A DNA stretch of 64,000 nt from Candidatus Azobacteroides sp. (GCA_021201815.1 JAJQEC010000093.1:15989-79988); one strand, 5' to 3'. Shown: positions 1-15,454, numbered from the stretch's first letter. Numbers and translations: made by a program. Notes: generated by a model from the letters alone, not told the origin.

Positions 1-2765
1 CCTCCGGTACTGTAACTGATGGTATAATCCGTTCCTTCATAAAACTCCCGGCCTTCACTGTCATATACACGATCAATCAGCACTGTACGGCAATAAGGGG
101 AGCCACCATTCCAGGTGAATGAATTGACAACACCGTTAGGTCTGAATTCATTCGGAAAGATTTCTTCTGTCAATCCGGATATTCCATTGTTCATACTCAG
201 ATTTAAGATAACACCTGTTTTATATCCGGTTTGCCCGTTCTGCCAAAATACAAGATCAGAGGGGGTCGATGCATTGTTACCCTGGCTGGCAGGTGTCAAT
301 CTGTAATCCCATACAAAAAAGTTATCTGACCTTTCGTTACAATCCCATACTTCTCTTCCTTCCCGGTAAATTCCCAATTGCAGTAATTGCACCGCTGTCT
401 GTTGAGGCGGTAAATATTCCGTTGCCTGTGAAAGGAAAGTAACTTTAAGTTTTGTATTTTTAATAAGAGAAACTCCGTCGGCCAGAAGATAGGGGGTAAT
501 ATCCGTACGCAGGTGATGAGTGCCGTTTTCATAAAAAAGCTCAATATCATCTGTTGCGATAGTGATTTCTCTGCTCCATGCTTCCTCCGGCTTCTGATAT
601 TGAAGGATGGCTCCCTGCCCTTTGCTGAAATAAGGACGCGATGCTTCCTGGGAATTCATATAAAAGATATCCGCATAAAGAGGCTGTCCATCGTCGTTTT
701 TTACATCATCTCCGGCCACATAGGCATTGATCTCAAATTCTACATTGTCATACGGACCTGCTACATCCAGGTTTGCACCGGCCTCACGGGCTTCCTGCAG
801 AGAAGAAAAAGCATCGAAATTCTTGCTTTTAAATCCCAGGGTAGTACGTTCGGTCCTGTATCCATTGGCAATAATATAATCGCATTCGGTAGGAACGCGG
901 ACAATATATGTCAGAGGGACAGACGAGCAGCCATATATATAACTTTCATTTCCCCAGTTGAAAATATGGCTGATCTTTACATTTTTATTGACTGAATTGG
1001 ATGCGCTGGCAGCTTCTATGGTGAAGGTGTAGGTAATATCCGAAGTCATGGAAAGATAATTCCGGTTATAAAAAGTCAGGGTATTGGTGGATGCATGATA
1101 AGTAATATCCGAGGCAGCTACCGGAACATTATTAATCATTACCCCATGGACAGGTACATAGTTGAGATTTGAGGGAAGGACCAGTTCCACCAGGTTGCTT
1201 ACATTGCTTCTGCTTTTGAGTTGTGTTCCGTTCGGATATCCTAACCCTGCAGGAGATTCGGAAATCTTCAGGGTAGTTTGAGTACCACTTCCTGTTTCCG
1301 GATAATAAATGAGGTTCGGGGTGCCCAAGGAACTGAGCCAGCCGTTGAAGCCCAGGTTTTCTCCGTATATAGGGTTACTGGCGCTATGTAAGTATGTACA
1401 TCCGGGACGGCTGTAGTAAGTGTACCGCTGAATGTGGAAATTGTACAGGAAATTATTCGTCCCTTCCATACAATTGCCACTATATGTAAAATCATAATTC
1501 CACTCAACGGTTAGATAAATATATTCGGAAGTAGGAGCAAGGTCGTTGCAATACCCGTCTTCATCCGCAGCATAGAATCCTTTATAAGGCGTGGTAGCAG
1601 TATAATCTATTCTTACCTGATAATCATTTGTGTCAAAATAAGAATAACTGACAGGAGGAGCAGAAGCATCCCGTGTTCCGGAACCGTTTGAAAAATATAC
1701 ATCTTTTACTTTAATATGTAACGCTGTGGTACTGGCAGTATAAAGCATGTGGTACATATTTTTCGCAGTCACCCGATTCGGATTTGTAATCCTGATAATA
1801 AATTTCCCCGGAACATCCGGTCCGTTCGGCATGGTATAACTTGTATAGGTAATCAGGGAAGAGGGGAAAGGATCGGCAAAATTCACGTAGCTTTCCCCTG
1901 TATTTATTTTTACTTTTGTGCAACGATGGGTCGGGGTATAAATAAGTTTGGGCTGTATGGTAGGAGCATACATGTAACAGTATTCGTATCGTATCTTTTC
2001 CCTTATTCTCAATGTTTCCGTACTGCTTAAAATCGTATCTCCGTTTCCGGCTCTTTTTAAGTCTGCCGATGTAAAGGTATACTGGTAACTTAACCGGTCG
2101 GTTGCAATCTCTGCTTCTAATTCTATCCATCCGGTATTGGTAAGCATTTCTACCGACAGGATTCTGATAGAGGCATAGTTATTGGAATTCATATACTGTC
2201 CTTCTTCTGATGCCACATGCATGGTAAGGTCGCCTCCCATCAGGTAGCCCATTTCTTCATTCTGTTGTATGGTCCATTCCCGGTAAGCTTCCATAGAGGC
2301 CTGTATAACCGTGTCAGCAGGAGCCGTAAATACAAATACCGGATATTTGATGTTCGAAATGGGAGGCGAATAGCCTGTAATTAATAGCACATCGTCATTG
2401 CTGTAAAACTCATACCGTACCTGGTCTTCTTCTGCAATATCACATCCGGGTTTCATAAATACGGAGATATCCTTATTTTCTGTAAAACCGGTGAAGGATA
2501 TTTTTGTGCGGGTACTGTCCTGGGAAATAACACCGGCTGGATTGCTTCCGGTAATAGTCCAGTCCGAAGGGGCATATATCATTAAATAAGATTCGGCATA
2601 ATTTCCCGGAGCGAGAATAATGCTGAACTCCTGTGCTTCTCCTGATGGGATGATTGCTGAAGGATTGGAATACGGATCAATATATTGTGCCTTTCCTCCT
2701 ATACTGAAAGCTGCTATGAAGATACCGGTCCACAAGAGCCGTAAAAAGGTTTTTCTTCTTTTCAT
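1..2765 (-). CDS. Giant exported surface protein, N-terminal part (gene continues beyond left edge); paralog of 7224..12824
   Basis: ATG at 2765..2763. Hand translation MKRRKTFLRLLWTGIFIAAFSIGGKAQYIDPYSNPSAIIPSGEAQEF aligns with the N-terminus of the 1866-aa ORF. Nucleotide homology of 1..2765 to about 10080..12824. No same-frame ORF fragments in the track, consistent with an open frame running off the edge (edge-truncated ORFs are not listed). Confidence 0.8.
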   Translation of the reverse strand, partial: MKRRKTFLRLLWTGIFIAAFSIGGKAQYIDPYSNPSAIIPSGEAQEFSIILAPGNYAESYLMIYAPSDWTITGSNPAGVISQDSTRTKISFTGFTENKDISVFMKPGCDIAEEDQVRYEFYSNDDVLLITGYSPPISNIKYPVFVFTAPADTVIQASMEAYREWTIQQNEEMGYLMGGDLTMHVASEEGQYMNSNNYASIRILSVEMLTNTGWIELEAEIATDRLSYQYTFTSADLKRAGNGDTILSSTETLRIREKIRYEYCYMYAPTIQPKLIYTPTHRCTKVKINTGESYVNFADPFPSSLITYTSYTMPNGPDVPGKFIIRITNPNRVTAKNMYHMLYTASTTALHIKVKDVYFSNGSGTRDASAPPVSYSYFDTNDYQVRIDYTATTPYKGFYAADEDGYCNDLAPTSEYIYLTVEWNYDFTYSGNCMEGTNNFLYNFHIQRYTYYSRPGCTYLHSASNPIYGENLGFNGWLSSLGTPNLIYYPETGSGTQTTLKISESPAGLGYPNGTQLKSRSNVSNLVELVLPSNLNYVPVHGVMINNVPVAASDITYHASTNTLTFYNRNYLSMTSDITYTFTIEAASASNSVNKNVKISHIFNWGNESYIYGCSSVPLTYIVRVPTECDYIIANGYRTERTTLGFKSKNFDAFSSLQEAREAGANLDVAGPYDNVEFEINAYVAGDDVKNDDGQPLYADIFYMNSQEASRPYFSKGQGAILQYQKPEEAWSREITIATDDIELFYENGTHHLRTDITPYLLADGVSLIKNTKLKVTFLSQATEYLPPQQTAVQLLQLGIYREGREVWDCNERSDNFFVWDYRLTPASQGNNASTPSDLVFWQNGQTGYKTGVILNLSMNNGISGLTEEIFPNEFRPNGVVNSFTWNGGSPYCRTVLIDRVYDSEGREFYEGTDYTISYSTG

Positions 2766-2797
2766 ATACCTCGATGTATGGGTAAATAAATACAATT

Positions 2798-3193
2798 TTA
2801 TTCTTTGTCACAATAATTCCTTGTATGTCTGGTTTTGAACTGGTAGCCTATGTAGAGAAATGCCAGAACAAACAATACCGGAATACCGCTTTTAAGGGGA
2901 GTAGGTCTTACCTGTCCTCCCGGATTATAATTGTTATTATCTCCGTCCGGATTTGTCGGAGGTGCACTTAAAGGATCATCCTTATCTTTTTCGAATGAAA
3001 AAGTTTCGGCTTCCCGGAACAGAGTATTTTCTTTAAAAACCTCTTTATCCCTTCCGGAAGGGACTCGCTGGTGTGATTTTTCCCATGTGCTTTCCGGAAA
3101 TTGAGGTGACTTGTAATCGGCCAAAAGAGAGAAAGGGATTAAAGCCACTATCAAAAAAACAGAAAGATGGTGAATCACCTGACTCTTCCACAT
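2798..3193 (-). CDS. Small exported/bitopic protein with N-terminal hydrophobic segment and C-terminal PGG-motif + TM + basic tail; paralog of 12842..13258
   Basis: 131-aa ORF. Aligns with the 138-aa ORF over LFR..E.F..EKD.DP..SAPPT.PDGD.NNY.PGG followed by a hydrophobic stretch and a basic tail. Lies 32 nt upstream of the giant gene start. Confidence 0.7.
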   Translation of the reverse strand: MWKSQVIHHLSVFLIVALIPFSLLADYKSPQFPESTWEKSHQRVPSGRDKEVFKENTLFREAETFSFEKDKDDPLSAPPTNPDGDNNNYNPGGQVRPTPLKSGIPVLFVLAFLYIGYQFKTRHTRNYCDKE

Positions 3194-3461
3194 AATTGTT
3201 CTTTTTAAATAAGTGGTACTATAGCACGTATGTACATAATTGACGATCGTATTTTCGTCAGAGTAGTGGCATCAATTCAGTAAAAAGTTATTAACAGTCA
3301 GTTGTGGCTGGCTTTTTCTTTTAACTTTCCTACTATTTTTCCTTTCCTCAGGAAGCGGATTACCTTATGGCCTCATCGGTTCCTTGCGAAAACCTTCAAC
3401 AAAGTTGATGTATAAAAAAAGAAGAAGAATTAAAAAATTAAAAACTCTTTAAATTGATGAT

Positions 3462-3500
3462 ATTTCCATCAGGTAACAGATAAGGAATCCTGATGGAAAT
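3462..3500 (-). terminator. Hairpin downstream of 3553..4833 (12-bp perfect stem atttccatcagg / cctgatggaaat)
   Basis: Perfect inverted repeat read directly; followed on the minus strand by a moderately T-rich stretch. Confidence 0.45.
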
Positions 3501-3552
3501 GATTATCCCCATGCTTAACGCATGTGCTGCATTGTTTTTTCGGGCAGGATCG

Positions 3553-14621: not shown

Positions 14622-14659
14622 ATTGTCTATTTTATTGTTTTTTTGCAGGGGATAAAAAG

Positions 14660-14718
14660 AAACAGGAGCAGGCAGGAAATTTGTTTGTAGTGATGTTCTG
14701 CCTGCCTTTCTCCTGTTT
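14660..14718 (-). promoter_or_regulatory. Terminator/attenuator-like interrupted hairpin in the leader of the cassette-B LRR gene
   Basis: AAACAGGAG/CTCCTGTTT (9 bp) plus CAGGCAG/CTGCCTG (7 bp) arms. On the minus strand it is followed by TTTCTTTTTATC, about 40 nt before the ATG at 14621. Confidence 0.35.
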
Positions 14719-15033
14719 GCATAATTCAAAGGGTATCCTGTTTCCTTTGAAGTCTCAATGATAAAAAGGACGACCTCACGTCGTGCTCTCCACCAGGTAA
14801 GGTTTCTTTGTATGATTGTTTTCCACCGGGAGTAACTAAAAGCAAAAGGGTATAAGCAAAGGGCAGCCAGTTTCTTTCCGGGCTGTTGGCTCAGGCATGA
14901 AGGCCGCATGGGAATTACAGAAGTTTCCGTTAAATAAAAAAAATAAGGATGGAGATATTGCACAATTAAAGAATATTTTGTATGACGCGCCTGGGTTAAT
15001 AAGTTATTGGGTAAGGTTGGTAAGTAGTAATAT

Positions 15034-15048
15034 TCTCTCTCTCTCTCT
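15034..15048. repeat. (TC)7 dinucleotide microsatellite
   Basis: tctctctctctctct read directly; about 415 nt upstream of the LRR-B start; absent from the homologous cassette-A leader. Confidence 0.9.
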
Positions 15049-15454
15049 AATACAATTTGGTTAACTACCAAATTATCAGTAGAAAAAATATAAGATGACA
15101 TCTTATTTTTATAAGAGAAACACATACCTTACACTATTAATTTTACGGTTTTTTACCTTTAAAACCGGACACATGATTAAACGGTGTGGCAAATTTAAGA
15201 TAAAATATTTAAAATAAAACAATTTTATTATGTTAAATATTTTGCTAAGGGTGTTATTCTTTTATTTAAAACAAAGTTGTAGGATGTATTTTTTTAGAAA
15301 GATACGTGCTGTAAAATAAGGTAATAGCCCCTTTTTAGCGGAGGTATTCAAGGTATAAGGAGTAATTGTTGATTAAGATTAAATCGTAATTATTATAAAT
15401 ATTCCGGATAACAGGAAGGGAATGTTTTTTGTTAATTTGACTACCGGGAGAAAG

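Follow-up and report, generated by a model that had tools for sequence, protein, structure and literature searches.

A repeated three-gene cassette with predicted type IX secretion cargo in a genome labelled Candidatus Azobacteroides sp.

The cassette array and its proteins

A stretch of 64,000 nucleotides (GCA_021201815.1 JAJQEC010000093.1:15989-79988, hereafter the window) from an NCBI metagenome-assembled genome (MAG) labelled Candidatus Azobacteroides sp. carries, at its left end, two tandem copies of a three-gene cassette. Each copy consists of a gene for a protein of about 425 amino acids (aa) that resembles leucine-rich repeat (LRR) proteins and ends in a type IX secretion system (T9SS) C-terminal sorting domain (CTD), a gene for a small protein, and a gene for a giant protein. 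A first reading made from the DNA alone (the sequence-only reading) had recognised six open reading frames (ORFs) here. Translation of the window verified the coordinates of all six and their position on the minus strand, and the N-termini quoted for the two giants are exact.

Copy 1 comprises the LRR-like cargo gene (3553..4833, 426 aa; characterised with Pfam, NCBIfam, hhalign and AlphaFold2, AF2), the gene of a 131-aa small protein (2798..3193, from translation) and the N-terminal 921 codons of the giant (1..2765), the rest of which runs left of the window. In copy 2 the LRR-like gene (13353..14621) has 422 codons with an in-frame TGA, the small protein of 138 aa is intact (12842..13258, from translation), and the giant gene (5901..12824) has 2307 sense codons broken by an in-frame TGA and includes a C-terminal module resembling RemA and RemZ (~5904-7760), within which the CTD occupies ~5904-6128. 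Amino-acid identity between the two copies is far above chance, with 64% in the giant, 55% in the LRR-like protein and 42% in the small protein. The full-length giant of copy 1 has 2310 aa (P0001, LUG18_09850) and is encoded by an open frame at L001:10429-17361 on a Logan contig, L001, that was found via the small protein of copy 1 and is identical to the window across 13,193 shared bases.

The expectation that more copies would lie left of the window was borne out when the locus was extended leftwards with L001, the contig L004 and the locus tags. L004 carries a third cassette, with proteins of 422, 132 and 2143 aa, and the tags LUG18_09830, LUG18_09850 and LUG18_09875 belong to the three giants of this one MAG. 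The order of the tags indicates that copy 3 (LUG18_09830) lies just left of the window, adjoining copy 1. The spacer between copies 1 and 3 measures at least 2 kb, as the Logan contigs do not overlap, and holds an ORF fragment of IS200/RAYT type. This short ORF (L001 18891-19004) starts with MSYTQILYHIVIRTK, which is typical of Y1 transposases of the IS200/RAYT type.

The sorting domain of the LRR-like protein is clearly recognisable. In copy 1 it covers residues 364-424 (nt ~3556-3744) and is detected by Pfam PF18962 (E 4.7e-9; 36.9 bits, cut-off 27) and TIGR04183 (E 4.2e-11; 42.7 bits, cut-off 23); in copy 2, where it is still detectable, the scores are 30.6 and 34.1 bits. The signal peptides, read directly from the sequence, are hydrophobic N-termini followed by Q-N or Q-x. 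With its CTD above both curated cut-offs, the protein is a predicted type A T9SS cargo, in line with the T9SS export proposed earlier. Its designation as an LRR protein holds in part. An N-cap and short LRR-like region (residues ~31-145 of copy 1, nt ~4399-4743) aligns in hhalign, at residues 31-145, with the N-cap and first repeats of P0023, an LRR protein with several LRR Pfam domains, at a probability of 97.8%; Pfam LRR models, however, find no match in the LRR-like proteins at E <= 0.1, and the label is therefore only partly verified. The AF2 model has a mean confidence (pLDDT) of 67.5 overall and displays short, regularly spaced strands at residues 89-167 (pLDDT 60-91). Its top Foldseek matches are immunoglobulin (Ig) tandems and not LRRs, all of them generic and with low template-modelling (TM) scores, and the middle domain may, according to the model, be Ig-like.

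The giants begin with a hydrophobic N-terminus followed by A-Q (GKAQYI, THAQYI), likewise read directly from the sequence, and contain 27-32 Cys residues. Neither Pfam nor NCBIfam identifies a domain in seven giants at E <= 0.1, save a sub-threshold CARDB-like stretch and chance matches, and a SUEL-type lectin domain is not found in any of the seven by Pfam. A profile of these seven proteins matches exactly two PDB sequences, RemZ and RemA: profile positions 2062-2330 align with RemZ residues 847-1112 (E 2.7e-19) and positions 1996-2331 with RemA residues 1088-1435 (E 1e-16). The aligned part includes the Lys-containing C-terminal strand of the RemZ and RemA CTDs, and a weaker, collinear match to RemA, containing a W-x-G...NW...G-x-P segment, lies further upstream. 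The AF2 model of the last ~75 residues (pLDDT ~75-81) superimposes on the CTDs of RemA and RemZ solved with the translocon at target-normalised TM-scores of 0.86-0.87 (rmsd 1.3-1.6 A), and across the solved CTDs of RemA, RemZ and NucA the target-normalised TM-scores range from 0.77 to 0.87. The signal peptide and sorting domain claimed for the giant are thus supported, and by profile and predicted fold the sorting domain is of type A.

Upstream of its end the giant has a different character. The first ~1,650 residues have no match outside the family, and profile positions 1-1645 have none in the PDB. The remote relatives tested, which were drawn from the profile search and a neighbouring locus (P0009, P0010, P0013 and L007 20648-25381), align only from about residue 1680 onwards, i.e., over the last 550-630 residues. 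We interpret this as a division into a family-specific passenger of ~1,650 residues and a shared tail of ~620 residues, which by alignment is common to several unrelated giant T9SS cargo proteins, including RemA and RemZ. The tail is also the best-conserved part of the protein: among the seven aligned giants, mean agreement with the copy 1 residue is 68-77% at positions 1701-1900 versus 41-60% elsewhere. The view that the giant lacks any characterised domain therefore holds for the first ~1,650 residues, but not for the C-terminal quarter. The O-glycosylation motif D[ST][AILVMT] is not enriched in the giants over shuffled sequences. Two distant giants with the conserved tail (L020 156-8384 and L019 1062-13626) are encoded behind lipoprotein genes. 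As one of the lipoprotein genes of L020 encodes an Mfa2-family fimbrial anchor (Pfam E 8e-76), the tail may serve pilus-associated T9SS cargo in some lineages.

The small protein opens with a signal peptide, which is followed by an acidic segment and an APP...PGG motif, and it ends in a transmembrane helix with a basic tail. The acidic segment spans ~70-85 residues, is net acidic and bears motifs of the form (D/E)KKS(I/L)FE; the invariant APP and PGG lie inside L-x-APP-x-F...Y-N-PGG-Q-V, and a hydrophobic helix of ~17 residues followed by a Lys/Arg tail forms the C-terminus. An exhaustive HMMER search of 1.84 billion representatives returned 14 such small proteins, with no other convincing match, and the topology features are identical in 14 of the 14. 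Its description as sorting-signal-like could not be upheld. Helix and basic tail are present, but PGG stands ~10 residues ahead of the helix and nearly the whole protein would be signal; no model of Pfam or NCBIfam, sorting-signal models included, matches at E <= 0.1, and the protein, which has no known relatives, does not by these models belong with PEP-CTERM, GlyGly-CTERM, PEF-CTERM, LPXTG and their relatives.

Conservation, age and state of the copies

The order of a ~420-aa CTD protein, a ~130-aa protein and a ~2,330-aa giant is kept in L004, L005/L006, L007/L008, L009, L010/L011 and L016/L017, two of which (L005/L006 and L010/L011) are loci of one MAG, GCA_031553395.1. At all loci examined the three genes are direct neighbours with a common strand and an unchanged order; in L009 the small ORF runs in frame into the gene call of the giant. 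The giants of these six loci share 43-48% identity with the window copies. The flanking genes, by contrast, differ from locus to locus (ribosomal protein S16 and GH3; a PAPS-reductase-like gene; sigma-54; glycoside hydrolase 3; NusA and IF2). Pairwise identities of the proteins are correlated, with r = 0.81 between LRR-like protein and giant and r = 0.61 between small protein and giant. Linkage maintained across saturated divergence and changing neighbourhoods is our main argument that the three genes work together, and the fixed synteny postulated from the window alone is thereby corroborated.

All three families are comparably rare. Only eight giants were found in 5.8 billion protein clusters, three of them from the LUG18 MAG; a scan of 185,579 species genomes returned three loci in two MAGs, and a scan of JGI metagenomes with a four-sequence alignment of the small protein returned a single, already known contig. 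Judged by sequence and gene order, the three-gene set is a real, conserved and lineage-restricted unit. A distant counterpart of part of the arrangement occurs in L007, where a minus-strand gene pair occupies 20238-25381: the gene of a 1577-aa CTD protein sharing the ~600-residue tail (24% identity over 675 aa, E 1e-29) is followed, not preceded, by that of a 132-aa protein with signal peptide, acidic segment, helix and KKKK tail. Giants with this tail seem to need a small partner. Two of the loci have an additional 498-aa type A T9SS cargo rich in W/Y-containing repeats upstream of the cassette (L009 6623-8119 and L016 7861-9357), which is absent from the window copies.

Synonymous sites between the copies are saturated, with a proportion of synonymous differences (pS) of 0.69-0.85 throughout, and the ratio of the nonsynonymous proportion to it (pN/pS) is 0.15-0.5. 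Conversion tracts, or stretches of high nucleotide identity between copies, were not found. A recent tandem duplication or gene conversion is excluded by these two observations, and the three copies are, to judge from their divergence, ancient. In a distance tree they cluster together against the copies from other genomes.

Copy 2 differs from its neighbours in base composition, forming a sharply bounded GC-rich block at window positions 5950-14700. The G+C content at third codon positions (GC3) is 0.58-0.60 in all three of its genes, compared with 0.36-0.45 in copies 1 and 3 and 0.33-0.46 in 13 other, mostly housekeeping, genes of the window. In other genomes the GC3 of the cassette is close to that of the flanking genes, which excludes a cassette compositionally foreign in every host; only copy 2 deviates. 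It is possible, and fits the composition, that copy 2 was imported from a GC-richer close relative and subsequently inactivated. A donor lineage for copy 2 was not found.

The sequence-only reading had described a tandem repetition of the cassette. The repeated minus-strand gene order stands, but the copies are not equivalent working duplicates. Copy 1 is open in all three genes over ~8.6 kb and is the only intact cassette, with the only intact giant, of the three. The giant gene of copy 2, taken earlier as a single frame, is cut by a TGA at 7224-7226, located by translation and alignment to the paralogs, into 1866 and 440 codons; the Logan assembly of SRR15221322 has the same 1866 + 440 split. 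This TGA stands opposite TGG in copies 1 and 3, and the Trp is invariant in all seven aligned giants. Since the signal peptide is on the 1866-aa part and the CTD on the 440-aa part, neither piece could be T9SS cargo. The LRR-like gene of copy 2 is likewise not intact as assumed, having an in-frame TGA at 14331-14333 opposite CGC in copy 1 and AGA in copy 3, both coding for Arg. In copy 3 the giant diverges at about residue 2139 and stops at 2143, so that the last ~165 residues including the sorting domain are gone; both Logan contigs end 11 nt past this stop codon.

Each TGA of copy 2 is one substitution away from the sense codon of its paralogs, the other Trp codons of the two broken genes (33 + 4) are all TGG, and the remaining genes of the window are unbroken, most of them with TAA as their stop codon and TGA serving as an ordinary stop elsewhere. 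We therefore interpret both TGAs as nonsense mutations and not as recoding. A global reassignment of TGA is excluded by the regular Trp codons, by the intact other genes and by the two TGAs standing opposite different residues, Trp and Arg. Neither broken gene contains a frameshift or a second stop, which suggests that the inactivation of copy 2 is recent.

Leaders, spacers and neighbouring genes

Homology of the leaders had been noted earlier, and it is confined to a small part of them. A 23-nt motif is shared by copy 1 (5123-5145) and copy 2 (15060-15082), but the remainder of their leaders does not align. The copy 1 leader is the AT-rich minus-strand spacer at 4834..5900, which contains the 23-nt motif and an inverted repeat with a T-run; the copy 2 leader (14622..15652, minus strand) contains the motif, an (AG)7 tract and inverted repeats. 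Between copies 2 and 3 the shared part of the leader is larger and includes the (AG)7 tract ~395-425 nt upstream of the LRR-like gene (copy 2 ~15035-15048, minus strand; copy 3 L004:14-30), which copy 1 does not have. In copy 2 the tract is preceded by AATTTGG-N7-CCAAATT. No variation in its length was seen between the two assemblies.

The small-to-giant gaps in the window copies are 17-32 nt long, and a short way downstream the copy 2 giant is followed by an inverted repeat with a terminal T-run (5817-5863); a consensus scan did not call it as a terminator. Gaps and inverted repeat together would fit one transcript per cassette. A search of both leaders for an invertible promoter found no convincing flanking inverted repeats, eight leaders have no consistent site for the Bacteroidetes-type promoter motif (TTTG...TAnnTTTG), sigma-70 and terminator scans remained at background level, and an Rfam scan of window positions 1-17000 gave chance-level matches only.

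Directly upstream of copy 2 lies a gene of the HU-HIG family (15653-16252, minus strand) with an HU domain and a C-terminal region resembling a winged helix-turn-helix (Pfam E 5e-35); it is not kept beside the cassette in other genomes. An imperfect 49-nt inverted repeat (15455-15503 / 15583-15631) lies between this gene and the leader of copy 2; it is 78% complementary and GC-rich and has a 79-nt spacer. It could be a repetitive extragenic palindrome (REP) or an element resembling miniature inverted-repeat transposable elements (MITEs), and a weak, chance-level Rfam match overlaps it.

Further to the right, a low-GC island (29-31% GC) occupies positions 24456-31465 on the minus strand. It encodes, in this order, a protein of Sel1 repeats ending in a type A T9SS CTD (29141..30571), a secreted protein of 302 aa whose N-terminal half is very acidic (28233..29141) and four paralogous secreted proteins of 173-182 aa (27688..28227, 27074..27595, 26155..26688 and 24456..25004), which share 49-89% mutual identity and have no Pfam match. 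By analogy, the layout resembles a secreted effector with an array of immunity-like paralogs.

Proposed function and comparison with known systems

We propose, with a probability of about 0.55, that the cassette is a surface-adhesin module of the T9SS, lineage-restricted and equipped with two dedicated partners, and that the array is under turnover. The three genes would be co-transcribed, and both cargo proteins would use Sec to pass the inner membrane and the T9SS translocon to pass the outer one. For Porphyromonas gingivalis it is established that type A cargo has its CTD cleaved off once translocated and is linked to anionic lipopolysaccharide on the surface (PMC8545088); by analogy, both cargo proteins would undergo cleavage and be anchored at the cell surface. 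Binding would be the task of the giant's variable N-terminal 1,650 residues, and the short LRR-like cargo may bind the giant or a shared ligand at the surface. Following the positive-inside rule, the small protein would span the inner membrane with its helix, the acidic segment facing the periplasm and the basic tail the cytoplasm, and might serve the very long cargo as a dedicated escort or holdase prior to translocation. The array would then represent turnover of an adhesin repertoire, with old paralogs, one probably imported, and surplus copies decaying. The earlier idea of a surface adhesin with accessory factors agrees with the type A CTD and the RemA/RemZ-like tail, while the function itself is predicted from sequence.

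Several points weigh against this proposal. Adhesion, co-transcription and all roles of the small and LRR-like proteins are what we infer. With two of its three cassettes broken, this genome may be able to do without the module. The window, a view of 64 kb, contains no T9SS core gene; the second CTD cargo encoded in it, the Sel1 protein, suggests that the genome uses a T9SS. Standard CTD models remain below threshold on the giant (one of seven members matches, at E 0.56), and the AF2 model of its C-terminal 621 residues is poor (pLDDT 45) and usable only for the last ~160. The LRR assignment, finally, rests on ~110 residues and one profile match, with no Pfam LRR match.

Among the other explanations, it is unlikely that the array is a decaying remnant, functionless in this organism, with copy 1 merely not yet hit. 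The two nonsense codons of copy 2, each a single substitution from the sense codon of its paralogs, and the copy 3 giant that stops at residue 2143 without its CTD would be expected of such a remnant. Against this, copy 1 is open over all three genes, pN/pS is well below 1, the orthologous cassettes in other sampled genomes are open wherever they are complete, and the inactivation of copy 2 appears recent.

We regard it as similarly improbable that the giant is a gliding adhesin in the strict RemA sense, whose tail docks on the moving gliding track with the LRR-like and small proteins as track or loading factors. In favour of this explanation are the sequence homology with RemA and RemZ over the last ~340 residues, the weaker collinear W-x-G...NW...G-x-P match and the fold of the CTD. 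However, Pfam finds no SUEL-type lectin or other N-terminal domain of RemA, no gld or spr genes are visible in the window, and the homology is limited to a tail also present in giants other than RemA, one of them in an Mfa-type fimbrial operon. Gut Bacteroidales are, moreover, generally non-gliding.

That operon raises a third explanation, in which a type V (Mfa/Fim-like) pilus exported via the T9SS has the giant at its tip or as an accessory subunit, comparable to Mfa5 of P. gingivalis. The gene of the distant relative P0013, which shares the C-terminal module, indeed lies directly downstream of two lipoprotein genes, one of which encodes the Mfa2-family anchor (Pfam E 8e-76). We consider a pilus subunit quite doubtful for the cassette itself, as no fimbrillin, Mfa or Fim gene occurs in or beside any of the nine cassettes examined, where the partners are instead an LRR-like CTD protein and a small bitopic protein. 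Least probable by our estimate is a read-through or recoding of the copy 2 TGAs for low or regulated expression: both interruptions are TGA, the frames stay open afterwards for 440 and 325 codons and a tRNA-Trp would restore the invariant Trp of the giant, but the two codons replace different amino acids next to 33 + 4 regular TGG codons, TGA is a normal stop in the window, where no other gene has an in-frame TGA and no tRNA gene is present, and a pair of single GC-to-AT substitutions, in a genome that is AT-rich, explains the two codons more simply.

The adhesin module can be extended, tentatively and with rather low probability, to an undescribed T9SS adhesin system, in which the small acidic inner-membrane protein would be the dedicated export partner of a giant cargo with a RemA-like tail of 600 residues, the LRR-like protein would be a co-receptor at the surface, and copies of the cassette would multiply, pass between related gut Bacteroidales and be inactivated one after another. 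If this were true, it would imply a new class of cargo-specific T9SS accessory factor and a changeable adhesin repertoire. While in the periplasm, a T9SS cargo several thousand residues long has to remain competent for secretion, and the small bitopic partner is a concrete and genetically testable candidate for a helper. Likewise, a 600-residue tail common to RemA, RemZ and unrelated giants is a module beyond the sorting domain of 75 residues and may carry information for surface attachment. The practical reach is limited, with the family confined to a few uncultured insect-gut Bacteroidales.

Among known systems, RemA and RemZ of Flavobacterium johnsoniae (Fjoh_0808 and Fjoh_0803) come closest to the giant, which would function in the manner of these two and of SprB-type adhesins. 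Both belong to the type A substrates of the T9SS, and RemA serves as a mobile adhesin in gliding (PMC10994853). Their C-terminal ~270-340 residues, type A CTD included, are homologous to the giant, which is ~900 to 1,200 residues longer and in whose N-terminal ~1,650 residues neither similarity to RemA nor a lectin domain is detected. The giant thus shares the C-terminal homology of the RemA family, but neither its lectin domain nor its overall collinearity. To our knowledge, RemA has not been reported with an LRR-CTD gene and a gene for a small bitopic protein as fixed neighbours.

In the SprB operon of F. johnsoniae (sprC-sprD-sprB-sprF), too, the gene of a giant surface adhesin exported by the T9SS is accompanied by genes for dedicated accessory proteins. 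SprB carries a type B CTD and depends on the neighbouring PorP-like SprF, whereas the CTDs of the cassette are of type A and its partners are unrelated to SprC, SprD and SprF. The cassette proteins match neither TIGR04131 nor the PorP/SprF family, and no further gene lies inside the cassette. As a type B CTD and a PorP/SprF gene are both lacking, the cassette is not of the SprB type. Mfa5 of P. gingivalis, a T9SS-dependent fimbrial accessory protein, is comparable as a large, CTD-bearing, adhesin-like protein working with neighbouring gene products. The cassette differs in having no fimbrial genes and no detected von Willebrand factor A domain. Fimbrillin or Mfa2 genes are absent from the window cassettes and the six orthologous loci and occur only beside the distant relative P0013, and without fimbrillins the cassette is not an Mfa-type operon.

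The BspA-type surface proteins of Tannerella and Prevotella, which combine LRRs with a T9SS CTD, resemble the LRR-like cargo in outline only, with signal peptide, an LRR-type binding region (putative in the window protein) and type A CTD on one protein. The LRR-like stretch of the window protein differs in being short, degenerate and missed by Pfam LRR models, its middle domain is predicted to be Ig-like, and its gene always stands beside that of a giant. The theme of a giant T9SS adhesin with accessory genes is already known, and the interest of the cassette lies mainly in its small partner protein and in the extended tail that it shares with other giants.

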